From Candidatus Fervidifonticultor secundus (lineage in GTDB: Bacteria; Sysuimicrobiota; Sysuimicrobiia; Sysuimicrobiales; Humicultoraceae): DNA of 64,000 nt. Both the position numbers and the translations under genes were made by a program. Numbering within the stretch: the stretch's first letter is position 1; each line of letters opens with the position of its first letter. Shown here piece by piece: positions 30,652 to 61,232 of the stretch. The notes under the pieces are model-generated. The model worked only from the letters and a program-made list of their open reading frames with translations. It searched no databases and was not told the DNA's origin. The stretch is taken from NCBI GenBank assembly GCA_031459385.1, contig JAVKIP010000008.1, positions 1 through 64,000 on the forward strand, in the 5' to 3' direction.

Positions 30652-30653
30652 GG

Positions 30654-33975: not shown

Positions 33976-33979
33976 GACC

Positions 33980-35269: not shown

Positions 35270-35284
35270 CGTCGGTCCCCGTCC

Positions 35285-36543: not shown

Positions 36544-36563
36544 TTAACTGACCGGTCAGTCAA
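36544..36563. promoter_or_regulatory. Palindromic operator in the putative promoter of the reductase operon
   Basis: ttaACTGACCGGTCAGTcaa; on the minus strand it fills a 17-nt spacer between TGGACG (-35-like) and TAAAAG (-10-like). Confidence 0.65.
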
Positions 36564-37750
36564 CGTCCATCGGGTGGAGAACCGATTTTGCACAGCCTGA
36601 CGAAGGCATAGCCCTCCATCAACCGACGGGCAGTCCTGGCGTATGCGGCCCGGAGGACCTGCCAGTCTCCCCTAGGCCCCGGCCGCGCATCCGCCGCTAC
36701 GACCATGATGCCGCTGGGATGTCCAAGGCGGATGCGGTCTCCCCCGCCCGTCCGGGCCACCGCGGCCGGTACGCTCCCCGGGAGCACGGCAGCGACGGCG
36801 GCACACGCGGCCGCCGTTCCGGGGAACGCCTTGTGCAGCACAGGCGGTCGCCCGCCCGCCAGGCGGACCAGCAGGTCGACCGACCGGGCCTCCACGGTGG
36901 CACCCCGTAGGGTGGCAAACGGGGCGGGCGGCGCTACCGCCACCGGCAGTGGCACAAGACCGTCACGGGGCACACCCAGCCGGCCCGCCGCTGCCTCCTT
37001 GACGGCCATCATCGCCTCCAGCATGCGTGCGGTGAACGTCTGCGGCCCCTCGGTGCCGCTCATGCCCGCGGCCCGGGCCGGGAAGAAGACGCAGAGGTTG
37101 GCCAGGTCCACGATGGTGACCTCTACCGGACCGAGTCCTGCGACCGGGAGGACATCGCGCACGGCTCCGGTGGGGAGGAGACGGCCCGTGGCGGCGCCGG
37201 CGGCGCCGGCGAAGTCCAGCAGGATCTCCGCCCCTGGATCCGGCACACCGTCCACGACGCAGTCGCCTTCAACGGCCGGACGGCCGCTGCGAACCGGCAC
37301 CAGCGCCGTGTAGACCTTTCCGGTGTTGGTGTTGTGCACCCGCACCGGCGTCAGCGGCTCGGCCGGCCGCACGAACCCTTCTTCGACGGCGTATACGCCC
37401 ACGGCAGCCGAGAGATTGCCGCAGTTGATGTCGTAGTCGACCACCGGCTCGGTGATGCTGACCTGGCCAAAGGTGTAGTCCACGTCGGCGTCGGGGCGCG
37501 TGGGGGGGCCGATGATCGCCACCTTGCTGGTGAGGATGTCGGCACCGCCCAGCCCGTCGATCTGGCGGGGGTCAGGGCTGCCGAACAGCGCCAGAATCAC
37601 GCGGTCGCGCAGGGCCGGGTCGGCTGGCAGGTCGCCGGTTCGCAGGAAGACGCCCTTGCTGGTACCTCCGCGCATGAGCACGCACCGGACCGGCACCTGC
37701 TCGCCGACCATCGGCAGTGCCGCGGGGGAGGCCCGAACGGCCCGCGCCAC
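36560..37750 (-). CDS. PrpF / methylitaconate-isomerase family protein
   Basis: MRGGTSKG, GSPDPRQIDGLGG...TSKVAII, NCGNLSAAVG, HPSG, RTARRLMEG. Confidence 0.9.
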   Translation of the reverse strand: MARAVRASPAALPMVGEQVPVRCVLMRGGTSKGVFLRTGDLPADPALRDRVILALFGSPDPRQIDGLGGADILTSKVAIIGPPTRPDADVDYTFGQVSITEPVVDYDINCGNLSAAVGVYAVEEGFVRPAEPLTPVRVHNTNTGKVYTALVPVRSGRPAVEGDCVVDGVPDPGAEILLDFAGAAGAATGRLLPTGAVRDVLPVAGLGPVEVTIVDLANLCVFFPARAAGMSGTEGPQTFTARMLEAMMAVKEAAAGRLGVPRDGLVPLPVAVAPPAPFATLRGATVEARSVDLLVRLAGGRPPVLHKAFPGTAAACAAVAAVLPGSVPAAVARTGGGDRIRLGHPSGIMVVAADARPGPRGDWQVLRAAYARTARRLMEGYAFVRLCKIGSPPDGR

Positions 37751-37821
37751 GACGTCCACCTCCTTGTCTGTTCCTCCAAATGGCGCCCGGTGGCCCCGGT
37801 CGGGACCGTGCGCCGGGCGGT

Positions 37822-38964
37822 TTATGCGGCGGCGATCAGCACCGTGCACGCCGCGCCCTCGATGCCTGCGGCTTTGCCCCCGCGGCAGTGAGCCAGACCC
37901 ACCCGCGCCCGGGCGATCTGGCGGGCGCCGGCCTCGCCGCGGATCTGGCGGACGAGTTCGACCACCTGCGCCACGCCGGTCGCCCCCAGCGGATGTCCCT
38001 TGCCCAGCAGGCCGCCGCTGGGGTTGATCGGGCGCCGGCCGCCCAGCGACGCTTCCCCGCGCTCCAGCGCGGCCGGGTAGGCTCCCGGCGGCCACAGCCC
38101 CAGCCCTTCTACCCGCAGGATCTCCGCGATGGAGAAGCAGTCGTGGACCTCGGCAAAGTCGACGTCGTCGGGGCCCACGCCGGCCTGCTCGTAGGCCACC
38201 CGGGCGGTGCGCGCCGTGAGCTCCTCGAACGCCATCGAGCCAGGAGTGGCCTCCACGGCCCCAGTCTGCAGGGCGGCCGCCCGCAGCCGCACGGTGCGGC
38301 TGCGGCCCACCTGGTCCGCCACCCGGTCGCTGCACAAAATCGCGGCGGCGGCGCCGTCGCTCACCGGGGAGCAGTCCAGCAGGCCCAGGGGATCGGCGAT
38401 CGGCCGCGCGCCCAGCACCTCCTCCAGCGTCACGGCTTTCTGGAACTGGGCGAGGGGGTTGCAGCTGGCGTTGTGTTTGTTCTTAACCGACACCAGGGCG
38501 ATCTGCCGGCGGGTGGTGCCGAACTCGGCCATGTGGCGTCGCGCGCGCATGGCGTAGACCGCCGGCATCGTGAGGCCCACGGCCGCCTCCAGGTCGTCCT
38601 CGCCAGGGGTGAGCGCGCCGCGGAAGCGCGACGTCAGGTGCTCGACGCCCACCGCCAGAACCACGTCGTGAGCTCCCGCGGCGATGGCCAGCGCGGCCTC
38701 GCGGACGGCGACGGCGCCGCTGCTGCAGGCGTCTTCCACGTTGGTCAGCGGGATGCCGGCCAGTCCCACCTGCGCCAGGACCCGCTGGCCGGTCACCATA
38801 CCCTGGAAGACGTGCCCGCAGTAGGCGGCCTCGATGCGCCGCGGGTCGATGCCGGCATCGCGGACGGCCTCCAGCACCGCATCTGCGCCCAGGTCGACCG
38901 CTGTGCGGTCGGTGTGCTTGCCGAACTTCGTCATGCCCACGCCGAGGATCCAGACCTCACCCAT
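37822..38964 (-). CDS. SCP2-type thiolase, BbsB-like
   Basis: NVEDACSSG (Cys), HDCF, GHPLGATG; GMVTGQ, YAMRA and GxExAACT recall benzoylsuccinyl-CoA thiolase. Confidence 0.85.
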   Translation of the reverse strand: MGEVWILGVGMTKFGKHTDRTAVDLGADAVLEAVRDAGIDPRRIEAAYCGHVFQGMVTGQRVLAQVGLAGIPLTNVEDACSSGAVAVREAALAIAAGAHDVVLAVGVEHLTSRFRGALTPGEDDLEAAVGLTMPAVYAMRARRHMAEFGTTRRQIALVSVKNKHNASCNPLAQFQKAVTLEEVLGARPIADPLGLLDCSPVSDGAAAAILCSDRVADQVGRSRTVRLRAAALQTGAVEATPGSMAFEELTARTARVAYEQAGVGPDDVDFAEVHDCFSIAEILRVEGLGLWPPGAYPAALERGEASLGGRRPINPSGGLLGKGHPLGATGVAQVVELVRQIRGEAGARQIARARVGLAHCRGGKAAGIEGAACTVLIAAA

Positions 38965-39436
38965 CGCGCACCTCCCTCGCCACGTCCTGTCCGTGGGGGA
39001 CCTGGCACGGGTAGCCCCGGTAGGCCAGCACCGGCCGGCCATCGGACGTCGCCCGCACGGGCTCGACGCGGAGGTCCACCGGTGCGCCGATGCGGACGTC
39101 GCTCGGGTCGATGTCGGCCAGGGGCGCCAGGACCCGTACGCCGTCGGGCAGGTCGACGTATGCCAGGACGTAGGGCGTGGGGAACTCCGGCGTCGACTGG
39201 TGCACCACGGTGTAGGTGTAGACGGTGCCGCGCGAGGACAGGCCGACGACCTCCAGGTCGGTGGCCAGACATCGCGCGCAGACCAGACGACGCGGGAAGT
39301 AGCAGGCCCCGCAGCGCGGGCAGCGGCTGCCCGCCAGGCGCAGCCGCCCGCCCTCGTCAGGCACGAACAGCCCCGGCCGCAGAGGGACCGGCGCTGCAGC
39401 CGTCGCCGCCTGGTGCGCGGCCGCCGGTTCGCTCAC
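38957..39436 (-). CDS. Zn-ribbon/OB-fold (DUF35) thiolase partner, BbsA-like
   Basis: CPRC...CARC, TPYVLAYVDLP..VRV; overlaps the thiolase start. Confidence 0.87.
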   Translation of the reverse strand: MSEPAAAHQAATAAAPVPLRPGLFVPDEGGRLRLAGSRCPRCGACYFPRRLVCARCLATDLEVVGLSSRGTVYTYTVVHQSTPEFPTPYVLAYVDLPDGVRVLAPLADIDPSDVRIGAPVDLRVEPVRATSDGRPVLAYRGYPCQVPHGQDVAREVRDG

Positions 39437-39437
39437 C

Positions 39438-40214
39438 TCAGATCACCTCCACCAGGCGCCACCGGGACGCGGCACGCTCCACCGCCCGCAGCGCCGCGTC
39501 GATGGCCCAGATCATGGCCAGCAGCACGGTCAGACCCGCCAGGACATCACGGGCGTTGAACATCGACTGAGCGAACGCCACCACCACCCCTACGCCGCGG
39601 GAGGCGCCGACGTACTCCCCGACGATGGTCCCGGCCAGGGCAAACCCCATGGTGACGCGCACGGTGCCCAGCAGCCACACCGCCACGGCCGGCAGGTAGA
39701 CGTGCCACAGCAACTGGACGCGGCGGGCGCCGAGCACACGGGCGGCGTGCACCACGTCGCGGTCCACCGCGGTGACCGCGGCATGGGTGTTGAACGCGGC
39801 CACGAAGAAGACCAGGGTGACGACCAGGACGATGCGGGGCGCCGCGCCCACACCCAGCCACAGCACCAGGAGCGGGTAGAGGATCACGCGCGGGACGGCG
39901 TTGCCGGCGGCCAGGAATGGCAGCACGATGCGAGTGGCCCGGGGCGAGGCAGCCAGGGCCCCACCGACCGCGGCACCCAGCGCCACCCCCAGCGCCAGTC
40001 CGCTTAAGGTCACGGCCAGCGTGGCGGTCACGTGCGGCAAAATGTAGCCCGAGGCCACCCAGGCGGCCGCCCGAACCAGGATCGCCGACGGGGTGCTCAC
40101 GTAGAACGGGTCGATGGCCCCCGCGCGCACCCCGGCCTCCCACGCAGACAGCAGGCCGGCCGCAGTGGCCACCCGCGCCAGAGCCAGGAGCGCCCGCCGG
40201 CTAGGTGCGCCCAT
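39438..40214 (-). CDS. NitT/TauT-type ABC permease
   Basis: NAVPRVILYP, GEYVGASRGVG. Confidence 0.88.
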   Translation of the reverse strand: MGAPSRRALLALARVATAAGLLSAWEAGVRAGAIDPFYVSTPSAILVRAAAWVASGYILPHVTATLAVTLSGLALGVALGAAVGGALAASPRATRIVLPFLAAGNAVPRVILYPLLVLWLGVGAAPRIVLVVTLVFFVAAFNTHAAVTAVDRDVVHAARVLGARRVQLLWHVYLPAVAVWLLGTVRVTMGFALAGTIVGEYVGASRGVGVVVAFAQSMFNARDVLAGLTVLLAMIWAIDAALRAVERAASRWRLVEVI

Positions 40215-41046
40215 GGGCAGCCAGGACCTCGTCGCGCAGGTCGGTCCAGATGCGCCGGTAGGTGGCCACGAACGCCTCGCTGCCCCGTACCTCGGTCACG
40301 TCGCGGGGACGGGGCAGGTCCACGGGATAGGCGGCCTTCACGCGGCCCGGCCGGCGGGTCAGCACGATCACGCGGTCGGCCAGGGCGATGGCTTCCTCGA
40401 GGTCGTGGGTGACGAACAGGATGGTGCTGCGGGCCTCGGCCCACAGCGCCAGCAGCTCGTTCTCCATCAGGTTGCGCGTCTGCACATCCAGGGCTGCGAA
40501 CGGCTCGTCCATCAGGATGATGGCCGGACGGTAGACCATGGTCATGGCCAGGGCGACGCGCTTGCGCATGCCGCCCGAGAGCTGCGAGGGGTAGTGGTGC
40601 TCGAACCCGGCCAGGCCGATGCGGTGCATCCACTCCCGGGCGGCCGCGCGGGCGCGGGCAGCGGGGGTCCCGCGCAGAACCAGCGGGAGCGCGACGTTGT
40701 CCAGGGCGGTCTTCCACGGCAGCAGGGTGTCGCGCTGGAAGACGTAGCCGATGCGGCCGGGCTGCAGCCCGGTGCTGGGCGCGCCGAAGATCCGTACCTC
40801 CCCCGCCGAGGGGCGCAGCAGGCCGCAGATCAGGTGGAGCAGCGTCGACTTGCCGCACCCCGACGGCCCGACCACCGAGACGAACTCGCCGGGCGCCACG
40901 CGGAATGACACGTCGGCCAGGGCGGACACCAGCGTGCCGCTCCCCGCAAACGTGCGGGCGAGCCGGTCTGCCTCGATGGCCGGCAGGGAGGGTCTGGCGT
41001 CTGCGGCGGAGAGCGGTGCGGCCGTCGCCGGCGCCTCAGCCTTCAT
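40201..41046 (-). CDS. NitT/TauT-type ABC ATPase
   Basis: GPSGCGKS, LSGGMRKR, MDEPFAALD, THDLEEA. Confidence 0.92.
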   Translation of the reverse strand: MKAEAPATAAPLSAADARPSLPAIEADRLARTFAGSGTLVSALADVSFRVAPGEFVSVVGPSGCGKSTLLHLICGLLRPSAGEVRIFGAPSTGLQPGRIGYVFQRDTLLPWKTALDNVALPLVLRGTPAARARAAAREWMHRIGLAGFEHHYPSQLSGGMRKRVALAMTMVYRPAIILMDEPFAALDVQTRNLMENELLALWAEARSTILFVTHDLEEAIALADRVIVLTRRPGRVKAAYPVDLPRPRDVTEVRGSEAFVATYRRIWTDLRDEVLAAHGRT

Positions 41047-41821
41047 ACCGCGGCTCCTGCCGCCAGACGGACCAGCGGGCGTCCAGCCTGGCCACCGCAG
41101 CGTCCAGCAGCCACACCAGCACCATGGCCACCACCAGCCCTGCCATGACGCGGGACGTCTGGAAGAGGTGCTGCGCGCCGATGATCAGGTGGCCCAGGCC
41201 GCGCATCGACGCCATGTATTCGCCCAGGATGGTGCCGACGAACGCGAACCCCAGGCTAGTCCGGAGGCCGGCGGCGATCCACACCAGCGCCGCGGGGAGA
41301 TAGACGTGGCGGAGCATGGCCGCCGGTGATGCCCCCAGCAAGCGTACCTGCGCCACCAGGGTCCGGTCGATCTCGCGCACGGCCCCCAGGGTGTTGAACA
41401 GGCCCACGAAGAGCACGATCGTGACCACCAGGGCGACCTTGGAGGCGACGCCCAGTCCCAGCCACAACGCCAGCAGCGGGTAGAAGACGATCCGCGGGGT
41501 GGCGTTGAGGGTGGCCAGGGCCGGTTCGCACAGGCTGGCCAGGGGCGGGGCCAGGGCCAGGAGCAGGCCCACCGCCGCCCCCAGCGCCAGGCCCACCACC
41601 AGACCGGCGAGCGCCGCGCCCACCGTGGCACCCAGATGGGGCCACAGTTCGCCGGTCGCAACCCACCGCCAGATCTCTGTGGCTACGGCCGACGGGCGGC
41701 TGGTGAACTCCTCGGACAGACGGCCGGCCCGTACTGCGCCCTCCCAGATCGCCAGGCCTGCCGCTATCACGGCCCCCTGGAGGCCGACGGTGGCCAGCCC
41801 GTCACGCCGCCGGTCGCTCAC
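41036..41821 (-). CDS. NitT/TauT-type ABC permease
   Basis: NATPRIVFYP, GEYMASMRGLG. Confidence 0.88.
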   Translation of the reverse strand: MSDRRRDGLATVGLQGAVIAAGLAIWEGAVRAGRLSEEFTSRPSAVATEIWRWVATGELWPHLGATVGAALAGLVVGLALGAAVGLLLALAPPLASLCEPALATLNATPRIVFYPLLALWLGLGVASKVALVVTIVLFVGLFNTLGAVREIDRTLVAQVRLLGASPAAMLRHVYLPAALVWIAAGLRTSLGFAFVGTILGEYMASMRGLGHLIIGAQHLFQTSRVMAGLVVAMVLVWLLDAAVARLDARWSVWRQEPRYEG

Positions 41822-42900
41822 AGGCCGCTTCCCGCCGCGATGGCCTTGCGCACGAAGCGGTCGTCCACCATCCGCTCCACCGGCACCGCGAACGCCGGGT
41901 CGAGGAGCCGATCCTGCTTGAGGAAGCGGATGACGGTGGCCACGGCTTCGGGCAGGACACGGCCGTCTGGCGACAGCCCGCCCAGGTTAGCCCGGATCAT
42001 CGCCGGCGTCCAGTTCAGCCCAGCCGGCAACGCCCGGGCGATCTCCTCGGGTTTCGCCCGGTGGAGGCGCAGCCAGCGCAGCGTGCGCACGAACGCGTCG
42101 ACCATCGCCTGCGCTGCCTCGGGGTCGCGGGCCACCACGTCCGCACGGGCCAGCAGGCCGCTGCTGATGTGGGCCGCGCCGTAGAGGCGCACCGTCCCCT
42201 CCAGCGTCCGCACGTCGTAGAGCAGGCGCGCCGAGCCGTCCTCCACCAGGGTGGTGATCAGGGGGTCGAGGTAGACCAGGGCGTCGATCGCCTTGCGCCG
42301 CCATGCGGCCAGCGCAGTCGCCGGGCCGCCCACCGGAACGAACTGTACGGCCTCCGGCTCGACCCCCCAGGCGGCCAGGATGTGGCGGGCCTGCATGTGG
42401 GTCGCCGAGCCCAGGCCCGTGACGCCGACCCTGCGGCCGCGCAGGTGCGCCGGCGAGGTGACCTCGCGCAGGTCAGCCTGCGCGATCATGGCCATGGTCT
42501 GCGCGTTGAAGAACGTCAGCAGGAACTTGAGGTCTTTGCCCTGCTCGTGGGCCTTGATGACCTGGGTGATGGTCACGGTGGCGAACTCGGTGTCGCCGCC
42601 GATGAGGGCCGTGGTGGCCTCGGGGCCGCCGCGGAAGTCGACGAACGTCACGCGCCATCCATGGCGGCGCTGGAGGTCGTCGAAGACGCCGAGCCCCATG
42701 GCCACGTAGACAGGCAGGTAGCCCACGACGTTGGGCGGCCCGATGGCCACCCGCAGGTCGCGGCGGGCAGCCCCCGGCGCGGGCGCCGGCCGTCCCGCAG
42801 CAGCCAGCAGGGCCAGCGCGGCGGCCAGGGCCGCCGGCCGCGCCAGCGGCCCCGGCCGCCGCAGCCGTCCACCACATCGTCCGGATTCCATCGCGCTCAC
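41818..42900 (-). CDS. NitT/TauT (NMT1-like) ABC substrate-binding protein
   Basis: Signal peptide, YLPVYVA..LG, GVTGLGSATH. Confidence 0.85.
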   Translation of the reverse strand: MSAMESGRCGGRLRRPGPLARPAALAAALALLAAAGRPAPAPGAARRDLRVAIGPPNVVGYLPVYVAMGLGVFDDLQRRHGWRVTFVDFRGGPEATTALIGGDTEFATVTITQVIKAHEQGKDLKFLLTFFNAQTMAMIAQADLREVTSPAHLRGRRVGVTGLGSATHMQARHILAAWGVEPEAVQFVPVGGPATALAAWRRKAIDALVYLDPLITTLVEDGSARLLYDVRTLEGTVRLYGAAHISSGLLARADVVARDPEAAQAMVDAFVRTLRWLRLHRAKPEEIARALPAGLNWTPAMIRANLGGLSPDGRVLPEAVATVIRFLKQDRLLDPAFAVPVERMVDDRFVRKAIAAGSGL

Positions 42901-42951
42901 CTCCAGGATCGGTGCCGGCGCGCACCATCTGGCGCGTCAGCCGGCCCAGGG

Positions 42952-43704: not shown

Positions 43705-43740
43705 CCCGTGCGTCCTCCCCTCGGCCGTCGGTGCCCGGCG

Positions 43741-44529: not shown

Positions 44530-44535
44530 GGATGT

Positions 44536-45768
44536 TCACCTCCGCGCCGGGTCCGTCTGGGGAACCGGTGGCCTCCCTGCCCAACTCTGCACCACGCCCG
44601 CCGCCACCAAGCGGGCGATCTCGTCGTCGGTGATGCCAGCCTCCCGCAGCACCGCCGCGGTGTGCTCGCCCGGTAGCGGTGCCGGCCTGGAGATGCGTGG
44701 GGGCGTCGCGCTCAGCCGAAGCGGCTGGCCCACCACGCGCGCCGCGCCCAGCTGCGGGTGGTGCAGCGCGACCAGCATGCCGTTGTGCACGACCTGCGGG
44801 TGGGCTTCGAGCTCCGGGTAGGTCAGAATGGGGCCGCAGACGATGTCGGCGGCCTCCAGGACGGCCAGCCAGTGCGCCGTGGGCATGGCCCGGAAGATAG
44901 GCGCGAGGGCGTCGCGCAGTTCGACCCTGTGGGCCACCCGCGCCTCGTTGGTCGCAAAGCGCGGGTCGGCGGCCAGGTCTGGCCGGCCCAGGACGGCGCA
45001 CAGCGCGTGCCAGCGCTCGGGCGTGTAGGCCGCCACCATGACGTGGCCGTCTGCGGTGGGGTACGCCTCGTTGGGCGCCGCGTACGGCGCGGCGCTGCCT
45101 GTGCGGCCCGGCGGGGTGCCTGAGGCCAGGTACATGGCGAGCGGGACGGTCTGGAACGCCAGCAGGGCGTCCAGGAGCGACAGGTCCACGCACTGGCCGC
45201 GCCCGGTGCGCTCGCGGGCAAACAGCGCCGCCAGGATGCCGGCCGCGGCCAGGAACCCCGCGGTGGTATCGGCGGCCGGCACGCCCACCTTGACCGGCTC
45301 GCTGTCGGGCGACCCTGTGACGCTCATCAGCCCGCTGGCAGCCTGGACGATCCCGTCCACGCCAGGCCGGTCGTGCCACGGGCCCGAAGCGCCGAAGGCC
45401 GAGATGGCGCAGTAGATCAGCCGGGGGTGGTCGGAGCGCAGCGTGTCGTAGTCAAGGCCCAGCCGCGCCATCACCCCTGGCCGGAAGCTCTCCACCAGGA
45501 CGTCGCTGCCGGCCACCAGGCGCAGGATGACGGGGCGCGCCTGGGGGTGCTTGAGGTCGATGACGATGCTGCGCTTGTTACGGTTCATGCCGATGAAGGC
45601 TGCGGCGACGCCGTCGACGAACGGCGGGCCGAGCCCCCGGCCCCACTCGCCGCCGGGAGGCTCGACCTTCACCACCTCGGCGCCGAGGTCGCCCAGGTAC
45701 ATGGCGCAGATGGGGCCGGCGGCACCCTGGGAGAGGTCGAGCACGCGAATGCCTTCCAGCGCAGTCAC
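44536..45768 (-). CDS. Class III (CaiB/BaiF/BbsEF) CoA-transferase
   Basis: LEGIRVLDLS, LGAEVVKVEPPGGE, NRNKRS, ESFRPG, PAAD. Confidence 0.9.
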   Translation of the reverse strand: MTALEGIRVLDLSQGAAGPICAMYLGDLGAEVVKVEPPGGEWGRGLGPPFVDGVAAAFIGMNRNKRSIVIDLKHPQARPVILRLVAGSDVLVESFRPGVMARLGLDYDTLRSDHPRLIYCAISAFGASGPWHDRPGVDGIVQAASGLMSVTGSPDSEPVKVGVPAADTTAGFLAAAGILAALFARERTGRGQCVDLSLLDALLAFQTVPLAMYLASGTPPGRTGSAAPYAAPNEAYPTADGHVMVAAYTPERWHALCAVLGRPDLAADPRFATNEARVAHRVELRDALAPIFRAMPTAHWLAVLEAADIVCGPILTYPELEAHPQVVHNGMLVALHHPQLGAARVVGQPLRLSATPPRISRPAPLPGEHTAAVLREAGITDDEIARLVAAGVVQSWAGRPPVPQTDPARR

Positions 45769-46397
45769 GGTCGGGCACCGTGCGCCGCGGCGGTCGCCAG
45801 GGGTCGGAGGGCAGCCACCGCGTAGTCGGCGAAGCGCGCGGCGATCTCTGCCGGCGGGTGCTGCCCGTCGGGGCGGTACCACCGCACCATCCAGTTGACC
45901 ATGCCCAGCACCGCGAAGCCCGCCAGGCGGACGTCGGTGGGCGCGAACTCGCCAGCGGCGATGCCGTCGGCGATGATGCGGCGGAAGAGGGCCTCGTAGC
46001 GGTCCCGCCATGCCACCAGCGCCTGGCGGTACGGGGGAGCCAGCGCGCGGCCTTCCTCGATGAAGCAGGCCACGTTGTCGCGGTCGCTGACCAGCGTCAG
46101 CACGTGGAGCCGCACGGCCTGCCGCAGGCGGTCTGCGGCCGGCTCGGCCCCGGCAGCGATACGCTCCAGGTCGGGCAGCGCCCGATCCAGGGTATGCTGG
46201 AGAATCTCGTAAAGCAGGGCCTGCTTGCCACGGACGTGATGGTAGAGCGAGGCCTTCGTGAGCCCCACGGCGCGCGCGATCTCCTGCATCGTGGTCCGCT
46301 CGAACCCCCGGGTGTGGAACAGGGCGGCGGCTGCGCGGAGGACCTGCTCGCGCGTGACGGGTATCCGGCGCTCGGCCCGCGTGACGCTGGTCCTCAT
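45765..46397 (-). CDS. TetR-family regulator (KstR2/PaaR-like)
   Basis: TTMQEIARAVGLTKASLYHH, GMVNWMVRWYRPDG. Confidence 0.9.
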   Translation of the reverse strand: MRTSVTRAERRIPVTREQVLRAAAALFHTRGFERTTMQEIARAVGLTKASLYHHVRGKQALLYEILQHTLDRALPDLERIAAGAEPAADRLRQAVRLHVLTLVSDRDNVACFIEEGRALAPPYRQALVAWRDRYEALFRRIIADGIAAGEFAPTDVRLAGFAVLGMVNWMVRWYRPDGQHPPAEIAARFADYAVAALRPLATAAAHGARP

Positions 46398-46993
46398 CGG
46401 GTATCGTCCGGATGCTGGCCGGCCGCCGTGGCGCAGACGGGCACCGCGGGCGCAGACGTCTGCCGGAGCGCCGTGCCCAGCTGCCACCCGGCCGCAAGCG
46501 CCTTCAGGTTGGGCACGGCGGCCGCCGACAGCCGGCTGCGGACGACGGCCTCCAGCGTGGGCAGCCGCACCACGTCGCACAGCGCGGCCGCCACGCCCAC
46601 GGCGACCATGTTGGCCGGGCGCGTGGTGCCGCTGGCCCGCCTGGCCGCCTCGGTGACGGGGATGGCGTGAATGCGCACCTGCCCCGTCCCCGTGATCGCC
46701 ACGCGATCCGCGTCGACGATGGCGACCCCGCCGTCGGCCACGGCACCCGACCAGCGCGTCCAGGCCTCCGTGGTCAGCGCCACCAGCACGTCGGCCACGC
46801 GCGCCACCGGATAGGCGACGCGCGTGTCGCTGATGACAACGTCGGAGCGGCTGGCGCCACCACGGGAGGCGGGCCCGTATGCCTGCGCGCAGGCCACGCG
46901 CCGGCCCTCCGCCACGGCGGCCTCGGCCAGGACGAGCCCGGCCAGCACGACTCCCTGACCGCCCGCGCCCGAGAATCGTATCGCGAGCCTCAC
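46394..46993 (-). CDS. korC: 2-oxoacid:ferredoxin oxidoreductase gamma subunit
   Basis: SGAGGQG, YGPASRGG.SRSDV, NMVAVG. Confidence 0.85.
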   Translation of the reverse strand: MRLAIRFSGAGGQGVVLAGLVLAEAAVAEGRRVACAQAYGPASRGGASRSDVVISDTRVAYPVARVADVLVALTTEAWTRWSGAVADGGVAIVDADRVAITGTGQVRIHAIPVTEAARRASGTTRPANMVAVGVAAALCDVVRLPTLEAVVRSRLSAAAVPNLKALAAGWQLGTALRQTSAPAVPVCATAAGQHPDDTR

Positions 46994-47898
46994 GGCGTCT
47001 CTCCAGGCCCCGCCGCGTCCACCGTTGCTGCGCGTACGCGGGCGGTGAACTCCGGGCGGTCGATGTCGACCAGCACGCCGGTCTCCACGGGCGGTCGGAC
47101 GGGGGCCGGCCCGGGCTGCAGCAGGGTAGACGCCAGCGGCGCCAGGTGCGCGTCCACGGCGGCGGTGGCGCGGGCCTGGCCGGCCAGCATGGCAGCGCCG
47201 CTACCCAGCCGGTTGTACCGGCCGTAGAACTCCGGGCAGTCGCTCAGGATCTCGATGAACGCGAAGCCGCGGTGGCGCAGGCCGCGGGCGATCAGGTCCT
47301 CCAGCACCAGCGGGGTCCAGACCGTCCCGCGGGCGACGAACGTGGCACCGGCCGCGGCCAGCAGGCGGCATGCGTCGAAGGGCGGCTCCACGTTGCCGGC
47401 CGGCGCCGTGGTGGCCACGCTGCCTTCGGGTGTGGTGGGGGCCAGCTGTCCGCCGGTCATGCCGTAGATCTCGTTGTTGAACAGCAGGCAGGTGAGATCG
47501 ATGTTGCGCCGCGCGGCGTGGATCAGGTGGTTGCCGCCGATGGCCAGGCCGTCGCCGTCGCCGGTGATGACGACCACGTGCAGGTCGGGACGGGCCAGCT
47601 TCAACCCGGTGGCGAACGCGGGGGCACGCCCGTGGGTAGCGTGGAGCGTGCAGAAGTCCAGGTAGCCGGCCAGGCGGCTGCTGCAGCCGATGCCTGCCAC
47701 GACCGCCACGCGGTCCTGGGCCAGTCCCAGGCGGTGGATCGCCCGCAGCAGCGCGCCGGCTGCGATGCCGTGCCCGCATCCCGGGCAGAGGATGTGGGGC
47801 ATCTGGGGCAGGCGGAGGTAGCGGCGCACGTCCACTGGAGGCCGATCGCCGGCCGCAACGCCCGGTGCCGGCGCCAGGCGTGTCCGGGCATCCATCAT
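46990..47898 (-). CDS. korB: 2-oxoacid:ferredoxin oxidoreductase beta subunit
   Basis: CPGCGHG, GIGCS, HGRA, GDGD..AIGGNH, NNEIYGMTGGQ..PTT. Confidence 0.9.
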   Translation of the reverse strand: MMDARTRLAPAPGVAAGDRPPVDVRRYLRLPQMPHILCPGCGHGIAAGALLRAIHRLGLAQDRVAVVAGIGCSSRLAGYLDFCTLHATHGRAPAFATGLKLARPDLHVVVITGDGDGLAIGGNHLIHAARRNIDLTCLLFNNEIYGMTGGQLAPTTPEGSVATTAPAGNVEPPFDACRLLAAAGATFVARGTVWTPLVLEDLIARGLRHRGFAFIEILSDCPEFYGRYNRLGSGAAMLAGQARATAAVDAHLAPLASTLLQPGPAPVRPPVETGVLVDIDRPEFTARVRAATVDAAGPGETP

Positions 47899-49040
47899 GC
47901 GTACCTCCCCACGGGCAGCGCCGCCTGCACGGCAGCCAGAATCTCTTCGGGCGCTATGGGCTCGCCGTCGGCGCGGCAGCACGGGACTACCGGGACCGCG
48001 CCGCAGACGACGCGTTCCACTTCGCGCACCACCTGGCCCAGGTTCATCTCGGCCACCACCAGCGCGTCGCACGACGCCGCCGCCATGCGTAGCGCCCGCT
48101 CGGGGAACGGCCACAGCACCCGCAGGCGCAGTGCCCCCGCGCGGATCCCGGCTCCTCGCGCCAGGTCCACCGCCTCTTCGGCGGCACGCCCGGTGATGCC
48201 GTAGCCGACGACGATCACCAGGGCGTCGTCGGTGCGGTACGCCTCCACCGGCTCCACATCGTCGAACACGGGTGCCAGCTTGGCCAGGCGGCGGCGCTGG
48301 TGCGCTGCCACCACCGCCGGATCCTCCGTGGGGAAGCCGCAGTCGTCGTGGGCCAGTCCCGTAACGTGGAACCGGTAGCCGCTGCCGAAGTCGGCCAGGG
48401 GCGGCACGCCATCGGGGTCCGGCGCGTAGGGCCGGTACGCCCGGGGTGGTCCGGTGGGGCGGCGGCGGGCCGGCAGGCGCGCCGCATCGGGCGGGCGCAG
48501 CACCGCCTCCTCGCGCAGGTGGCCGATCACCTCGTCGTAGAGCACCACCACCGGCGTGCGGAACCGCTCCGCGAGCCCAAACGCGTCGATGGTGAACTGG
48601 TAGACCTCCGCCACGGATGCGGGCGCCAGCACCAGGCTGGGCACGTCGCCGTGGGTGCCCCAGCGGGCCTGCATCACGTCGCCCTGCGCCGGTGCCGTGG
48701 GCAGGCCGGTGCTGGGGCCGCCGCGCATCACGTTCACCACCACGCACGGCACCTCGGCCATGGCGGCGAACCCCAGGTGCTCTTGCATCAGCGAGAAGCC
48801 GGGGCCGCTGGTGGCGGTCATGGCCCGCAGGCCTCCCAGCGAGGCGCCGATCACCGCGGCCAGCGACGCGATCTCGTCCTCCATCTGCACGAACAGGCCG
48901 CCGACCGCCGGGAGCCGGCGCGCCATCTCCTCGGCGATCTCCGACGAGGGCGTGATGGGATAGCCCGCGTAGAAGCGGCAACCCGCAGCGATGGCCCCTG
49001 CGGCGCAGGCGACGTTGCCCTGTACGAGGCGCGCGCTCAC
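47895..49040 (-). CDS. korA: 2-oxoacid:ferredoxin oxidoreductase alpha subunit
   Basis: YAGYPITPSSE, QMEDE, TSGPGFSLM, RGGPSTGLPT, EMNLGQ. Confidence 0.9.
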   Translation of the reverse strand: MSARLVQGNVACAAGAIAAGCRFYAGYPITPSSEIAEEMARRLPAVGGLFVQMEDEIASLAAVIGASLGGLRAMTATSGPGFSLMQEHLGFAAMAEVPCVVVNVMRGGPSTGLPTAPAQGDVMQARWGTHGDVPSLVLAPASVAEVYQFTIDAFGLAERFRTPVVVLYDEVIGHLREEAVLRPPDAARLPARRRPTGPPRAYRPYAPDPDGVPPLADFGSGYRFHVTGLAHDDCGFPTEDPAVVAAHQRRRLAKLAPVFDDVEPVEAYRTDDALVIVVGYGITGRAAEEAVDLARGAGIRAGALRLRVLWPFPERALRMAAASCDALVVAEMNLGQVVREVERVVCGAVPVVPCCRADGEPIAPEEILAAVQAALPVGRYA

Positions 49041-51705: not shown

Positions 51706-51715
51706 GCGGGCCTCC

Positions 51716-52942
51716 CTACGAGGCCTGCGCGACCAGGAGGCCCAAGATCTCCTCGTCGCGCAGGACGCGGTGGCTGGCCTTGGCCAGGTCGAGGATGCGG
51801 GCGACCAGGTGCGGGTCAGGCGCGATCCCGTGCCGCTCGCACCACCACAGCACGTTGGCCTGCCCGCTCATGGGGCCGATGGTGATCACCTGCTCCCGGC
51901 CCACCGCCTCGGCCGGCACGCCGCTGTAGACACGGTTGGCCAGCCAGTGGTCGCCCTTGTGCATCGCCTTGCGCACGGCGGCGGCGTGCACGCCGGTGCT
52001 GGTCTCGAACGCGTCCTTGCCCACCACCGGCGTGTTGGGCAGCACCGGCAGGCCCACGGCCTCGGCCACCACGCGGCAGTACTCGGGCAGCGCCCGCAGG
52101 TCCGCCTCCAGCCACCCCAGGAGCACCAGGTTGACCAGCAAGAGCTCCATACTGGTGTTGCCCACCCGCTCGCCGATGCCCAGGGCGCACCCGTGCAGGC
52201 GGTCGGCGCCCGCCCCCGCCGCCACCAGGCTGTTGATGACGTCCAGCCCCCGGTCGCGGTGGCCGTGCCAGTCCAGCAAGACGTCGTCCCCCAGCACCCG
52301 GCGCATGTACCGCACCAGGCGAGCCGTACCCCACGGCGTGGCGTGACCCACTGTGTCGGCCAGGCACACGCGGGCGGCGCCGGCGTCCACGGCGGCCCGG
52401 TAGATGCGCCGCAGGTGGGCGGGCCGGGCGCGAGTGGTGTCCTCGGTGACGAACATCACCTCCAGCCCGCACCGGCGCGCGAAGCGCACCGCCGCCTCGG
52501 TTGTGCGCAGCAGGAACTCCAGGTCCCAGTCCTCGACGTATTGACGGATGGGGCTCGAGCCCAGGAAGATGGCGGCGTCGATTCCCACCCCGGCGCGCTG
52601 CTGGGCCTCCGCAATGGGCGCGATGTCGGCTTCCGCGGTACGCCCCGCGCAGTTGGGCCGAATGCGCAGACGCGCGTCGCGGATCTCCCGTGCCAGGACC
52701 ACCACGTCGTTCAGGGCGTGGCGGCTGGCGGCCGGGTAACCGATGTTGGCGCCGTGGATGCCCAGGCGGTCCATCAGATGCAGGATCGCCACCTTGCGCT
52801 CCACCGGCGGGTGCACCACGGAGGGGCTCTGCAGTCCATCCCGCAGCGTCTCGTCGTTGACCTGCACCAGACGGCGCGGCGCGAGCCGCCGCGTGCCCGG
52901 CGCGTTCCAGTCGAAGATCAGGTCGCCTGTGCGGCCACCCAT
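51716..52942 (-). CDS. LeuA/homocitrate-synthase-like DRE-TIM acyltransferase with no regulatory domain
   Basis: DETLRDGLQ, ADTVG, HGHRDRG, GIGERVGN, GVHAAA; 408 aa. Confidence 0.88.
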   Translation of the reverse strand: MGGRTGDLIFDWNAPGTRRLAPRRLVQVNDETLRDGLQSPSVVHPPVERKVAILHLMDRLGIHGANIGYPAASRHALNDVVVLAREIRDARLRIRPNCAGRTAEADIAPIAEAQQRAGVGIDAAIFLGSSPIRQYVEDWDLEFLLRTTEAAVRFARRCGLEVMFVTEDTTRARPAHLRRIYRAAVDAGAARVCLADTVGHATPWGTARLVRYMRRVLGDDVLLDWHGHRDRGLDVINSLVAAGAGADRLHGCALGIGERVGNTSMELLLVNLVLLGWLEADLRALPEYCRVVAEAVGLPVLPNTPVVGKDAFETSTGVHAAAVRKAMHKGDHWLANRVYSGVPAEAVGREQVITIGPMSGQANVLWWCERHGIAPDPHLVARILDLAKASHRVLRDEEILGLLVAQAS

Positions 52943-52946
52943 GGGC

Positions 52947-54242: not shown

Positions 54243-54802
54243 GCGCTCACCCACCCCGTCCCGGCCCCTCCGGCGCGGCGGCGCAGCAGGGGTACGATGC
54301 CGCCGGCCTCGAGGATGGCCAGCATCTGCGGGGGCAGCGGCGACCCGGTCAGCACCTCGCCGGTCCGGAGGTTGTGCACGGTCCCCGCTGCCAGGTCGAC
54401 CTGAACCGGGTCGCCGTCGGTCACGGCGGCCGTTGCGCCTGGACAGGTCAGCACCGGCAGGCCGATGGCCACGGCGTTGCGCAGGAAGATACGGGCGAAC
54501 GACGCCGCCACCACGCACCCCACGCCCAGGGCCTGCAGCCCTTCGGGCGCGTGCTCGCGGCTGCTGCCGCACCCGAAGTTCTTCCCGGCGACCACCACGT
54601 CTCCGGGCCGTACCTCGGCGGCGAAGCGCGGGTTCACCGCCTCCAGCACGTGCCGCCGGCGCTCCTCCAGCGGCTCCACCGCGTAGGCGCCGGGCGCCAG
54701 CAAGTCGGTGCTGACGTCGTCGCCGAAACACCACGCGCGGCCGCGGATGGGGACCCGGAACGCGGGCGGGGTGCGCGGGGAGGGGGCATCACGAGCCGCC
54801 AT
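54239..54802 (-). CDS. LeuD/HacB/DmdB-like dehydratase small subunit
   Basis: FGDDVSTD, AGKNFGCGSSREHA, SFARIFLRNA. Confidence 0.9.
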   Translation of the reverse strand: MAARDAPSPRTPPAFRVPIRGRAWCFGDDVSTDLLAPGAYAVEPLEERRRHVLEAVNPRFAAEVRPGDVVVAGKNFGCGSSREHAPEGLQALGVGCVVAASFARIFLRNAVAIGLPVLTCPGATAAVTDGDPVQVDLAAGTVHNLRTGEVLTGSPLPPQMLAILEAGGIVPLLRRRAGGAGTGWVSA

Positions 54803-54803
54803 C

Positions 54804-56078
54804 TCATTCCGCCGCCGCCGGCTGCAGCACACGCCGCGGGTCGGTGATGCGGCCGTACAGGGCGCTGGCCGCCACCGTGGCCGGCGAGGCCAGGTAGATC
54901 TCGGCCTGGGGACTTCCCATGCGGCCGGCGAAGTTCCGGTTGTGCGCGCCGATGCACCGTTCGCCCGGCGCGAGCAGGCCCAGGTGGCCGCCAAAACACG
55001 GCCCGCACCCGGAGGGCAGCAGGACCGCGCCCGCGTCGACCAGCACCTCCAGCACCCCCTCGGCCGCCGCCTGGCGCTCGACCTGGCGCGAGGCCGGGCC
55101 GATGAGCAGGCGCGTGTGGGGGTGGACACGGTGCCCGGCCAGGATGCGGGCGGCCACCCGCAGGTCCTCGATACGGCCGTTGGTGCACGAGCCGATGAAC
55201 GCCTGGTCGATGGGGACGTCTTCCACCTCATGCACCGGCCGGATGCGGTCGACCGCATGGGGCAGCGCGACCTGGGGGGCCAGGTCGTCGAGCTCCAGAG
55301 TGAGGCTGCGGATGTAGCGTGCGTCAGGGTCGGGACCGAATGGCGCCGCGTCGACCCCGCACCGCCGCAGGTGCGCGGTCGTCGTGGGGTCGGCGGCAAA
55401 CAGCCCGAACTTGGCGCCCAGCTCCACGGCCATGTTGGCCATGGTGAGGCGCCCGGCCATGTCGACGTCGTCGGCTGCCGGCCCGCCAAACTCCAGCGCC
55501 TGGTACTGCGCGCCGTCGGCGCCCAGCTGCCCGGCCAGGGCCAGGATGGCGTCTTTCCACATCACCGCCGGCCGCAGCCGCCCGACCATCTCCACGCGGA
55601 TGCTGTGCGGTACCTGCAGCCACAGTTCGCCCGTGGCCAGGACGTACGCCATCTCGGTAGTGCCGATGCCGGTGCCTCCGACCCCCAGGGCCCCGGCCGT
55701 CGTCGTGTGGGAGTCGGTGCCCAACAGCAGCCCGCCCGGCGGCGCCAGCCCGCGCTCTGCCACCAGCTGGTGACAGATGCCGGAGCCCGCGTCGAAAAAA
55801 TGCGCGATGCCGAAGTCGCGGACATGGGCGCGGATCCGCCGGTGCACCTCGGCAGCGGCTACCGACGGCGCCGGGACCAGGTGGTCGATGACGACCGCCA
55901 CCTTCGTGCGATCCCATACGGCGAGCACGCCGGCATCGCGCAGCAGGTCGAAGACGGGAGCGGCGAAGATGTCGTGGAGGAGGGCAAGGTCGGGTCGGCC
56001 TACGACGAACTCGCCCGGGGACACGGCGGCGCGCCCCGATGCCCTGGCGAGGATCTTCTCGGCCATCGTCATGCCCAC
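54804..56078 (-). CDS. LeuC/HacA/DmdA-like [4Fe-4S] dehydratase large subunit
   Basis: DHLVP, GICHQ, DSHT, GSCTNGR, CGPCFG, HNRNFAGRMG, YLASP. Confidence 0.92.
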   Translation of the reverse strand: MGMTMAEKILARASGRAAVSPGEFVVGRPDLALLHDIFAAPVFDLLRDAGVLAVWDRTKVAVVIDHLVPAPSVAAAEVHRRIRAHVRDFGIAHFFDAGSGICHQLVAERGLAPPGGLLLGTDSHTTTAGALGVGGTGIGTTEMAYVLATGELWLQVPHSIRVEMVGRLRPAVMWKDAILALAGQLGADGAQYQALEFGGPAADDVDMAGRLTMANMAVELGAKFGLFAADPTTTAHLRRCGVDAAPFGPDPDARYIRSLTLELDDLAPQVALPHAVDRIRPVHEVEDVPIDQAFIGSCTNGRIEDLRVAARILAGHRVHPHTRLLIGPASRQVERQAAAEGVLEVLVDAGAVLLPSGCGPCFGGHLGLLAPGERCIGAHNRNFAGRMGSPQAEIYLASPATVAASALYGRITDPRRVLQPAAAE

Positions 56079-58443: not shown

Positions 58444-58516
58444 GACCAGCCCCCCGGGCCGATTGCACAGCCCACCCCCCGCCGACCGCACGCCCTCGCG
58501 GCCGATGGGGGTCAAG

Positions 58517-58530
58517 TGCGACAACTGTAA
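58517..58530. promoter_or_regulatory. Conserved 14-bp upstream motif, copy 1
   Basis: tgcgacaactgtaa; 13/14 identical to 63271-63284. Confidence 0.55.
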
Positions 58531-58686
58531 GACACCGGCTGCCGCCCGGCTATCGGGCGCTGGCCCGATTTTGCGCCGCTGCCACACCACCGCGCCCGGG
58601 CCGCTGCTACCGGCTCGGGGCAGGAGGCGCCGGGCAGAGGCGGCGGGGCAGGACGGGGCTGGAGGCGCGTGGCCGTGGACTGCCGG

Positions 58687-60494: not shown

Positions 60495-60526
60495 CGCGCG
60501 CGATCAGCCTCCGGCGCGCATCCCGG

Positions 60527-61228: not shown

Positions 61229-61232
61229 GCCC

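Follow-up and report, generated by a model that had tools for sequence, protein, structure and literature searches.

Arylacetates cannot be degraded by β-oxidation, and to our knowledge anaerobes handle phenylacetate and 4-hydroxyphenylacetate only by molybdenum-dependent α-oxidation, and indoleacetate by a separate, mutase-dependent route. Here we describe a block of genes in a metagenome-assembled genome (MAG) of Candidatus Fervidifonticultor secundus (3.3 Mb, 72% G+C, 97.6% complete) that probably specifies another kind of path, a peripheral anaerobic one that shortens the two-carbon side chain of arylacetates or arylpyruvates to an aroyl-CoA and needs neither a glycyl-radical enzyme nor an acyl-CoA dehydrogenase. 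The DNA stretch analysed, hereafter the window, is the first 64 kb of the 153-kb contig C58 (JAVKIP010000008.1), and the block is a single minus-strand run of 20 genes (36560–56078) that begins with leuC and ends with a gene for a PrpF-family isomerase. Several described systems share parts with it. The Pad system of denitrifiers (PadJ, PadBCD, PadEFGHI) oxidises the α-carbon of the side chain, and the bbs operon of anaerobic toluene degraders (BbsEF, G, H, CD, AB), accompanied in the genome by benzylsuccinate synthase, β-oxidises (R)-benzylsuccinate to benzoyl-CoA and succinyl-CoA with the help of the dehydrogenase BbsG and the protein pairs BbsC-BbsD and BbsE-BbsF. Mii and DmdAB are the 3-methylitaconate Δ-isomerase and 2,3-dimethylmalate dehydratase of nicotinate fermentation, and the mbd cluster of Azoarcus and Thauera comprises MbdONQP, a TetR regulator and KorAB. 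Finally, in the cyanobacterial homophenylalanine pathway, a homologation of phenylalanine and tyrosine, HphA (a LeuA-family synthase without a regulatory domain) and HphCD (a LeuCD-type isomerase) act on phenylpyruvate to give 2-benzylmalate, the same chemistry that we propose for the block (PMC12961565).

The block has the same kinds of enzymes as the bbs operon, namely a family III CoA-transferase, a crotonase, a short-chain dehydrogenase/reductase (SDR) and a thiolase with a DUF35 partner, and the last four proposed steps and their products would be identical. In place of benzylsuccinate synthase, however, the genome offers no glycyl-radical enzyme; BbsG has no counterpart in the block, where the unsaturated intermediate would come from an isomerase rather than from oxidation; and a single SDR and a single CoA-transferase, the latter closer to succinate-hydroxymethylglutarate CoA-transferase (SUGCT), stand where the bbs operon has pairs. 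The Hph pathway is biosynthetic and has an HphB/LeuB step, whereas the block is proposed to be catabolic and lacks that step. Mii of Eubacterium barkeri is the enzyme closest to the isomerase of the block, and the small subunit of the LeuCD pair falls in the LeuD/DmdB family model; the isomerase would move the double bond as Mii does, by an allylic shift that links an alkylmaleate with an alkylidene or methylene succinate, but in the opposite direction (malate derivative to maleate to itaconate derivative), on an aryl-substituted compound, and without the mutase or lyase of the nicotinate route. The Pad system performs the same task and likewise starts with a PaaK-type ligase and ends at a class I reductase, but instead of oxidising the α-carbon the route proposed here would add C1 and C2 units and release succinate. 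No Pad-like genes were found on C58, and the KorA protein of the block scores 71 bits with the PadG model, against 700 bits. As in the mbd cluster, the reductase, with a B-like subunit closest to MbdO, has TetR regulators, a branched-chain-type ABC importer and a 2-oxoacid:ferredoxin oxidoreductase in its neighbourhood. Here, however, the hydrolase and dehydrogenase that usually follow the reductase are replaced by an Amidohydro_2 protein and a BadH-like SDR, it is the peripheral block and not the reductase that KorABC accompanies, and the reductase subunits score below the benzoyl-CoA reductase (BCR) cut-offs.

Genes were called by Pfam and NCBIfam scans of the minus-strand frames (Table 1). 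The original prediction, a reading of the window from its letters alone, had listed the genes of the run in order from leuC to prpF and proposed that they convert phenylacetate or phenylpyruvate to benzoyl-CoA via benzylmalate and phenylitaconate; its gene list and order were borne out exactly. The run is bounded by the stop codon of the PrpF gene and the GTG start codon of leuC. With the starts chosen, 11 of the 19 junctions overlap, mostly by 4 bp, and no two neighbours are more than 62 bp apart, in agreement with the tight coupling that had been claimed; the start of leuD, for example, overlaps the stop region of leuC. A benzoyl-CoA-reductase-like operon had been placed beside the run, and two HGD-D and two BcrAD genes do follow, 114 bp beyond the PrpF gene. 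The G+C content of C58 is the same as that of the remainder of the bin. Close relatives carry the NCBI name Armatimonadota, and four DNA runs of one hot-spring study contain the stretch and may be its source; no RNA run containing it was listed.

The genes said to be missing from the window are indeed found elsewhere or not at all. The four Iso_dh (LeuB-type) matches of the genome are all on other contigs (C59, C13, C45 and C11), the sole acyl-CoA dehydrogenase gene of C58, one of seven in the genome, lies at 132 kb, and the seven molybdopterin (PF00384) matches are on C6, C23, C9 and C14, with none on C58. A bssA gene elsewhere had been named as an alternative explanation of the module, and the 97.6%-complete genome yielded no PFL-like (glycyl radical) match. 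The dehydrogenases queried, LeuB and BbsG-type, were absent from every copy of the block. One variant considered, the oxidation of 3-benzylmalate followed by KorABC-dependent formation of benzylmalonyl-CoA, was dropped, since it would require an acyl-CoA dehydrogenase, for which the block has no gene. Since the genome holds its own canonical leuA-leuCD-leuB operon (C59) and a second leuCD (C1), the LeuA-like and LeuCD proteins of the block are extra copies; the former is 31% identical to the genome's other copy, and the LeuC protein is 43–44% identical to the products of both other leuC genes.

From family likeness, gene order and co-occurrence, the following route may be drawn. The PaaK-like ligase would form arylacetyl-CoA, which indolepyruvate:ferredoxin oxidoreductase (IOR) would reductively carboxylate to an arylpyruvate, a point at which aromatic amino acids could also enter directly by transamination. 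The low-potential electrons for this step would come from the oxidation of 2-oxoglutarate by KorABC (KOR), a 2-oxoacid:ferredoxin oxidoreductase, via the KorD-like ferredoxin domain fused to IorB. The LeuA-like synthase would then condense arylpyruvate with acetyl-CoA to 2-(arylmethyl)malate, LeuCD would dehydrate this to arylmethylmaleate, and the Mii-like isomerase would shift the double bond, interconverting arylmethylmaleate and arylitaconate (benzylidenesuccinate). After activation of arylitaconate with succinyl-CoA by the family III CoA-transferase, the crotonase would hydrate it in a BbsH-like step, the BbsD-like SDR would serve as a 2-(hydroxyarylmethyl)succinyl-CoA dehydrogenase, and the BbsAB-like thiolase/DUF35 pair would cleave the product to aroyl-CoA and succinyl-CoA. 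Benzoyl-CoA would be reduced by the MbdO-like class I reductase, while 4-hydroxybenzoyl-CoA would first be dehydroxylated by a 4-hydroxybenzoyl-CoA-reductase-like (HCR-like) enzyme whose genes are on contig C34; besides phenyl, 4-hydroxyphenyl is a probable aryl group. This is the originally predicted route with four amendments, of which the wider choice of aryl group is one and the placing of the reductase, as an Mbd-type enzyme, in a movable central module another. That each catalytic gene has a role had been part of the prediction, yet KorABC was given none; KorABC and the IorB fusion now join the carboxylation step, and the PaaK ligase and the importers are regarded as accessories.

The relatives of the isomerase and of most enzymes proposed for the final steps fit this chemistry. 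The PrpF-family protein scores 354.7 bits with the 3-methylitaconate isomerase of E. barkeri (3g7k), compared with 230.6 for PrpF itself and 184.7 for (4E)-oxalomesaconate isomerase. In the alignment it keeps the positions of Lys62 and Cys96 of 3g7k, which we take to be the catalytic pair. The SDR has BbsD (7pcs_B) as the first of 264 solved relatives at E ≤ 1e-30 (259.9 bits over residues 1–245), the thiolase has BbsB (7pxp_C) as the first of 17 (278.6 bits), and the DUF35 protein has BbsA as the first of eight (77.4 bits). A grouping of these proteins with steroid or other clades had been named as evidence that would speak against the prediction, and with rank among solved structures used as a proxy for phylogeny it was not seen. 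In NCBIfam, the thiolase falls below the BbsB equivalog cut-off (297.7 vs 750 bits) and the DUF35 protein below that of BbsA (88 vs 250 bits), although BbsA is the only NCBIfam match of the latter; their genes are adjacent and overlap by 8 bp. The best solved relative of the CoA-transferase is SUGCT (288 bits), ahead of BbsF (174) and BbsE (148), and its NCBIfam models are those for mesaconate and glutarate, which places it closest to the succinyl-CoA:dicarboxylate transferases. A scan of genome contigs with this protein gave 44 loci, three of them the block and the others different CoA-transferase contexts. The crotonase resembles generic short-chain hydratases among the PDB and NCBIfam matches listed, which include no BbsH reference.

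The LeuA-like protein consists of 408 aa without a second domain, and thus lacks the C-terminal LeuA regulatory domain. It scores below the equivalogs for isopropylmalate synthase (197 vs 517 bits), homocitrate synthase (188.6 vs 462.9) and citramalate synthase (118 vs 450), and its best solved relative is the homocitrate synthase 6ktq (119.6 bits). The Arg-Asp (R34, D35) and His-x-His (H226, H228) motifs are invariant in all 20 aligned homologues. Five substrate-pocket positions are given in Table 1 of PMC12961565 as A73, D157, A159, M186 and S242 in HphA, as His, Arg, Thr, Ser and His in homocitrate synthase, and as Leu, Glu, Ser, Asn and Glu in isopropylmalate synthase. Four of the five could be placed in the LeuA-like protein by motif against the genome's own LeuA, a mapping based neither on structure nor on direct comparison with the HphA sequence, and they read Met, Val, Cys and His, compared with Asp, Ala, Met and Ser in the HphA of that table; Met, Val and Cys stand where homocitrate synthase has Arg, Thr and Ser. 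This Met lies two positions ahead of the Val/Ser that is conserved in the xFxxED strand. Three hydrophobic positions and the missing 2-oxoglutarate Arg would allow an aryl substrate, without proving it. Homocitrate/homoaconitate chemistry on 2-oxoglutarate was rejected, the pocket as mapped lacking the homocitrate-synthase Arg. The specificity loop of the LeuD protein is YAV instead of YLV. As for the ligase, the closest complete relative (G001; C1:2114000–2152000, loci L089 and L103) has no PaaK gene between leuD and the gene for the LeuA-like protein; the remainder of the block is intact there, with a PaaK-like gene on the opposite strand at a distance of about 8 kb. The window itself contains the beginning of a second PaaK-like ligase gene (63513–64000, plus strand), the product of which is 60% identical to that of the block, and beyond it (C58:63001–83000, L118) are genes for a branched-chain-type ABC importer, DHDPS-family, FAA-hydrolase and HpaB-family proteins and an H+-pyrophosphatase.

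IorA passes its equivalog cut-off, while IorB falls slightly below (204.4 vs 237 bits) and carries an extra ferredoxin domain, which otherwise matches only OorD in NCBIfam (43 bits), the delta subunit found in 2-oxoglutarate oxidoreductases of the four-subunit type. The korA gene follows iorB directly with a 4-bp overlap. The fusion is specific to this type of locus: in 15 of 15 loci that have the Mii-like isomerase and KorABC (G001, G013, G059, G061, G062, G089–G092, L120, L122, L125, L126, L128 and L137), IorB is 279–300 aa long and shows ferredoxin-type cysteine motifs, and in 6 of 6 loci outside this type it is 193–215 aa long and has none. Wherever the block and the reductase stand apart, KorABC stays with the block. 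We infer that the fused domain links KOR and IOR as a physical path for electrons, and the cost of carboxylating arylacetyl-CoA reductively would then be covered by the oxidation of 2-oxoglutarate. Such a link would give KorABC a role in the route, and would explain why it remains with the block and not with the reductase.

Comparison across the lineage supports the block as a unit. The GTDB phylum of the genome is represented by 94 species genomes, all of one order. An orthologue of the isomerase, at 62% identity or more, was found in 16 of these, and fragments in two others. The surroundings of the orthologue were taken from 15 genomes; ten loci were long enough to compare, and the contigs of the other five end early. 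All 16 non-transporter genes occur in the same order in eight of the ten, covering four families and genera g4, g21, g29 and g30, while the other two are G001, which lacks only the PaaK gene, and G082, with fragmentary matches. The co-conservation called for as a check of the prediction was therefore found, and the same set recurs in rearranged form in five metagenome contigs described below. The TetR gene keeps its position within the block in related loci, and the NMT1-type importer is dispensable, being absent from the block in g21 and represented by just its binding protein in g29 and g30. Reductase genes are present in 14 of the 16 block genomes, the two exceptions being 76% and 68% complete, and in 9 of the 78 others, a co-occurrence that is not a statistical test because the genomes are kin. 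These tallies include two unpublished genomes (G016 and G024), each without an isomerase orthologue and without the reductase.

The reductase is a four-subunit enzyme with BcrC-, B-, A- and D-like proteins. Its B-like subunit, the one subunit compared in this way, matches MbdO with 391.7 bits, compared with 98.6 for BzdO and 91.8 for the alpha subunit of 2-hydroxyisocaproyl-CoA dehydratase, so the enzyme is predicted to be an aryl-CoA reductase of the Mbd type, encoded in a movable central module. All four subunits fall below the Thauera- and bzd-type equivalogs (329 vs 421, 220 vs 487, 218 vs 578 and 140 vs 313 bits), and the products of the two BcrAD ATPase genes are 38% identical to one another. 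A phenyllactyl-CoA-type dehydratase, which with the CoA-transferase, crotonase, SDR and thiolase would make a route through cinnamoyl-CoA, was ruled out by the MbdO and dehydratase scores and by the presence of two different ATPase genes. In g1 and g21 the reductase lies directly downstream of the block; g4 has a more divergent form (41% identity) upstream, and in g28, g29 and g30 the reductase is found elsewhere. Where it stands alone, the module includes genes for an HCR-like enzyme, two crotonases, the Amidohydro_2 protein, the BadH-like SDR and hemerythrin. HcrCAB-like genes flank it in g28–g30 (L207–L210), and in the window's genome they lie at C34:4008–7904, where the alpha subunit scores 894 bits with the 4-hydroxybenzoyl-CoA reductase model (cut-off 994; next family 545). 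Another PaaK-like ligase gene and an ABC importer lie beside these C34 genes.

The order Amidohydro_2, BadH-like SDR and hemerythrin is kept beside the reductase in g1, g28 and g29. The Amidohydro_2 protein is 85–91% identical across four genera, and its gene always lies between those for BcrD and the BadH-like SDR (including L207, L208 and L209). In g21 (L092), the exact position of Amidohydro_2 is taken by a BadI/Oah-like crotonase (201 bits; cut-off 468), and a similar crotonase (204 bits) occurs in the reductase module of g30 (L210) beside Dch-like and Had-like genes. A Had-like gene precedes the Amidohydro_2 gene in both L165 and L166, and in L166 a Dch-like gene comes immediately ahead of that Had-like gene. 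A search of the genome for the ring-opening hydrolase gave no Oah or BadI match above the cut-off; menB, within a men operon, is the one BadI-like gene of full length, and half a gene lies at the end of C35. The Amidohydro_2 protein may serve the benzoyl-CoA pathway as a non-homologous enzyme for ring opening or hydration.

Metagenome contigs scanned with the LeuA-like alignment gave 80 loci, and five of these (L120, L122, L125, L126 and L128; LeuA-like proteins 60–64% identical) hold the gene set of the block in a different arrangement. One operon reads LeuA-IorAB-KorABC-TetR-CoA-transferase-crotonase-SDR-LeuCD, and a divergent one DUF35-thiolase-isomerase; the latter is present in four of the five, and L120 ends before that side. 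In two of them (L125:1799–5658 and L126:3191–7043), genes for HcrCAB-like gamma, alpha and beta subunits come directly after the isomerase gene, the alpha subunits scoring 814–852 bits with the 4-hydroxybenzoyl-CoA reductase model (cut-off 994) and about 510 with the next family. An enzyme for hydroxy-aroyl-CoA is thus placed beside the thiolase that would release such a product, and this is the strongest single argument that the block makes an aroyl-CoA. The link to aromatic acyl-CoA is independent of adjacency to the BCR-like genes, given the reductase in 14 of the 16 genomes and the HCR-like genes in these two rearranged loci. Protein searches brought up many more orthologues of the LeuA-like and Mii-like proteins; the named ones all come from MAGs labelled Armatimonadota, Acidimicrobiia/Acidimicrobiales or Acidobacteria, and the best 120 matches of either search include no cultured organism.

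A sister cluster was seen in L159, L165 and L191, where genes for IorAB, a LeuA-like protein (54–59% identical), LeuCD and LeuB occur together, and where the isomerase, the CoA-transferase and KorABC are all absent. L159 and L165 also carry a gene for aldehyde:ferredoxin oxidoreductase; L165 adds β-oxidation genes, and L159 adds genes of the mutase and hydantoinase kinds. The cluster may specify a LeuB-dependent homologation of arylpyruvate to arylpropionyl-CoA. In L166, reductase subunit, Dch-like, Had-like and Amidohydro_2 genes are followed by those for IorAB and a LeuA-like protein. Among the loci seen, IorAB-LeuA-LeuCD is paired with either LeuB or the Mii/CoA-transferase/Bbs-like/KOR set and never with both, which fits the second set replacing the LeuB step. 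The phylogeny of the LeuA-like proteins (89 rows; a quick IQ-TREE run with SH-aLRT support only) agrees with this division: all 15 proteins from loci of the Mii/KOR type fall in one clade of 20 (SH-aLRT 97), and a sister clade of seven (SH-aLRT 96) contains all rows of the IOR plus LeuB type. The two IorAB-linked clades together (28 rows, SH-aLRT 89) are nested in a larger family found beside housekeeping genes.

Table 1. Predicted genes of the C58 window, in order from leuC along the minus strand and then the neighbouring regions, with the matches on which each assignment is based.
Feature	Coordinates	Strand	Matches and remarks
LeuC-like aconitase-family large subunit, 424 aa	54804–56078	−	PF00330 333 bits; NF001614 534 vs cut-off 385
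LeuD/DmdB-family small subunit, 187 aa	54239–54802	−	TIGR02087 167 vs cut-off 109
PaaK-family aryl-acetate-CoA ligase, 431 aa	52947–54242	−	TIGR02155 505.9 bits, below equivalog cut-off 646
LeuA-like Claisen-condensing synthase, 408 aa, HMGL-like domain only	51716–52942	−	PF00682 151.9 bits
IorA, indolepyruvate:ferredoxin oxidoreductase alpha, 607 aa	49882–51705	−	TIGR03336 701.6 vs equivalog cut-off 650.9
IorB with C-terminal 2x[4Fe-4S] ferredoxin (KorD/OorD-like) domain, 282 aa	49037–49885	−	PF01558 and Fer4
KorA, KorB and KorC, three-subunit 2-oxoacid:ferredoxin oxidoreductase	47895–49040, 46990–47898, 46394–46993	−	NF006412 538.7 vs cut-off 411; KorB- and KorC-type matches
TetR-family regulator within the block	45765–46397	−	PF00440, PF17932
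Family III CoA-transferase, 410 aa	44536–45768	−	PF02515 455 bits
Crotonase-family enoyl-CoA hydratase, 262 aa	43741–44529	−	PF00378 245 bits
SDR, 250 aa	42952–43704	−	Best solved relative BbsD
NMT1/SsuA-type ABC importer (binding protein, permease, ATPase, permease)	39438–42900	−	Pfam; accessory insert
DUF35 Zn-ribbon/OB protein, 159 aa, BbsA-like	38957–39436	−	PF12172, PF01796
SCP-x-type thiolase, 380 aa, BbsB-like	37822–38964	−	Best solved relative BbsB
PrpF-family isomerase, about 383–399 aa, Mii-like	36560–37759	−	PF04303 341 bits
Class I benzoyl-CoA-reductase-like enzyme (BcrC-, B-, A-, D-like subunits)	32327–36445	−	HGD-D x2, BcrAD x2
Amidohydro_2 protein (31403–32284), BadH-like SDR, hemerythrin	30100–32284	−	Travel with reductase; then second TetR
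Two PAS-domain regulators upstream of leuC: winged-helix (OmpR-type, without receiver domain) + PAS; PAS + LuxR HTH	56196–57664	−	Pfam
Branched-chain-type ABC importer (five genes) and dienoyl-CoA-hydratase-like crotonase	57676–63192	−	Pfam; TIGR03189 167 vs 292 bits

A number of observations weigh against the proposed route. The reductase adjoins the block in just three of the seven block-holding genera, and the counts from the related genomes, being those of kin, are not independent. All of the Bbs-like, BCR-like and PaaK-like proteins score below their NCBIfam equivalog cut-offs, the crotonase and the CoA-transferase are not specifically Bbs-like, and a PaaK-like gene is absent from the block in G001 and was unseen in the five rearranged metagenome loci. 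Reductive carboxylation by IOR in a catabolic route would be energetically demanding. The four Iso_dh and seven acyl-CoA dehydrogenase genes elsewhere in the genome could act in trans, and two PhsA-like molybdoenzymes (C6 and C14) are possible Pad-like enzymes. Three rows of the Mii/KOR clade come from loci without the block: L121 and L127 (16–17 kb, 45% G+C, judged by tblastn only) hold none of the other genes, and L124 is just 2.6 kb long. Lastly, the wider LeuA-like family (L133, L144, L150, L163 and about 55 more loci; 54–59% identical, with the motifs VM[YF]VTEDT and DTVGHATP) adjoins genes for citrate synthase, DAHP synthase-prephenate dehydratase or Iso_dh, and because of these housekeeping contexts, LeuA-like homology is silent on whether the substrate is an aryl compound.

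The main rival explanation, which we consider unlikely, is a homologation completed in trans, whereby the LeuA-like protein, LeuCD and a LeuB from elsewhere in the genome would extend arylpyruvate to 2-oxo-4-arylbutyrate, IOR would decarboxylate this oxidatively to 3-arylpropionyl-CoA, and an acyl-CoA dehydrogenase likewise encoded elsewhere together with the crotonase, SDR and thiolase would release aroyl-CoA and acetyl-CoA. The sister cluster lends it weight, since LeuB stands there with IorAB, the LeuA-like protein and LeuCD, accompanied by aldehyde:ferredoxin oxidoreductase or β-oxidation genes, and the genome does have Iso_dh and acyl-CoA dehydrogenase genes on offer. However, the Iso_dh protein nearest to the sister-type LeuB matches the tartrate-dehydrogenase equivalog and is encoded in an unrelated context, and neither LeuB nor an acyl-CoA dehydrogenase accompanies any copy of the block. 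Homologation would also leave without a role the Mii-like isomerase, the CoA-transferase, KorABC and the IorB-ferredoxin fusion, the very genes that replace LeuB, and the closest relatives of the SDR and thiolase, BbsD and BbsB, act on succinyl-CoA derivatives. A second explanation keeps the chemistry and changes the substrate, with an aliphatic or alicyclic R-CH2-CO-COOH being converted to R-CO-CoA and succinate and the reductase a mere neighbour. This reading would be in keeping with the uncharacterised LeuA-like clade and its housekeeping-like wider relatives, with the generic crotonase and with a PaaK-like ligase that falls below the phenylacetate-CoA ligase cut-off. It is nevertheless improbable, as IorA lies above the IOR equivalog cut-off, three of the enzymes have best relatives whose substrates are benzoyl- or hydroxybenzyl-succinyl-CoA, block genomes nearly all carry an aryl-CoA reductase (14 of the 16), and in L125 and L126 an HCR-like enzyme shares an operon with the thiolase and isomerase; aliphatic acids, moreover, can be β-oxidised and need no such detour.

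Lastly, the block could run in a biosynthetic direction or be a mosaic, in which IOR and the PaaK ligase would make aromatic amino acids from arylacetates, KOR would donate electrons to the reductase, the LeuA-like protein and LeuCD would elongate another 2-oxoacid, and the Bbs-like enzymes would act on an unrelated acid. IOR and PaaK-like ligases do serve arylacetate assimilation in anaerobes, KOR is the electron donor system of the class I reductases of Thauera and Azoarcus, and the reductase module moves independently of the block. Against this, KorABC keeps to the block and not to the reductase wherever these are separated, the set of 16 genes holds together in two gene orders across lineages whose LeuA-like proteins are 60–64% identical, the junctions overlap at the frequency given above, and LeuA-type condensation is practically irreversible. 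This explanation seems very improbable. The originally predicted route, as amended here, is the most economical reading of the block. It is undescribed in the literature searched: full texts, with subscription journals outside the coverage, gave no description of it by its key intermediates or by its combinations of enzymes.

Two features of the window outside the block may be mentioned. The genes for the two PAS-domain regulators upstream of leuC overlap by 4 bp, and a homologue of the PAS-LuxR protein precedes the reductase genes in other genera. At 24622–25590 on the minus strand, the gene for the solute-binding protein of an ABC importer is broken by one in-frame TGA (25078–25080), which could reflect a pseudogene, a sequencing error or recoding.

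We tentatively suggest a broader picture, in which the block represents a third oxygen-independent strategy for removing the side chain of arylacetates, widespread in uncultured thermophilic bacteria and in MAGs labelled Acidimicrobiia. IOR and KOR, joined via the KorD-like domain, would move CO2 and electrons from 2-oxoglutarate onto arylacetyl-CoA, the LeuA/LeuCD proteins and a Mii-type isomerase would build arylitaconate, and Bbs-type enzymes would release aroyl-CoA and succinyl-CoA without a radical enzyme, a molybdoenzyme or a flavin dehydrogenase, while the sister variant would reach the same product by LeuB-dependent homologation and then β-oxidation. The enzymes of the block are soluble, have known folds and come from a thermophile, and each step is therefore open to testing; the IorB-ferredoxin fusion would allow a coupling between two 2-oxoacid:ferredoxin oxidoreductases that run in opposite directions to be tested. 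If the route is as proposed, it would be composed of common enzyme families only and would provide radical-free enzymatic access to benzylidene- and benzyl-succinate-type compounds. It would also give benzylmalate, benzylmaleate and phenylitaconate a catabolic role, and would explain how aromatic amino-acid residues enter the benzoyl-CoA pathway in bacteria that lack pad and bss genes.

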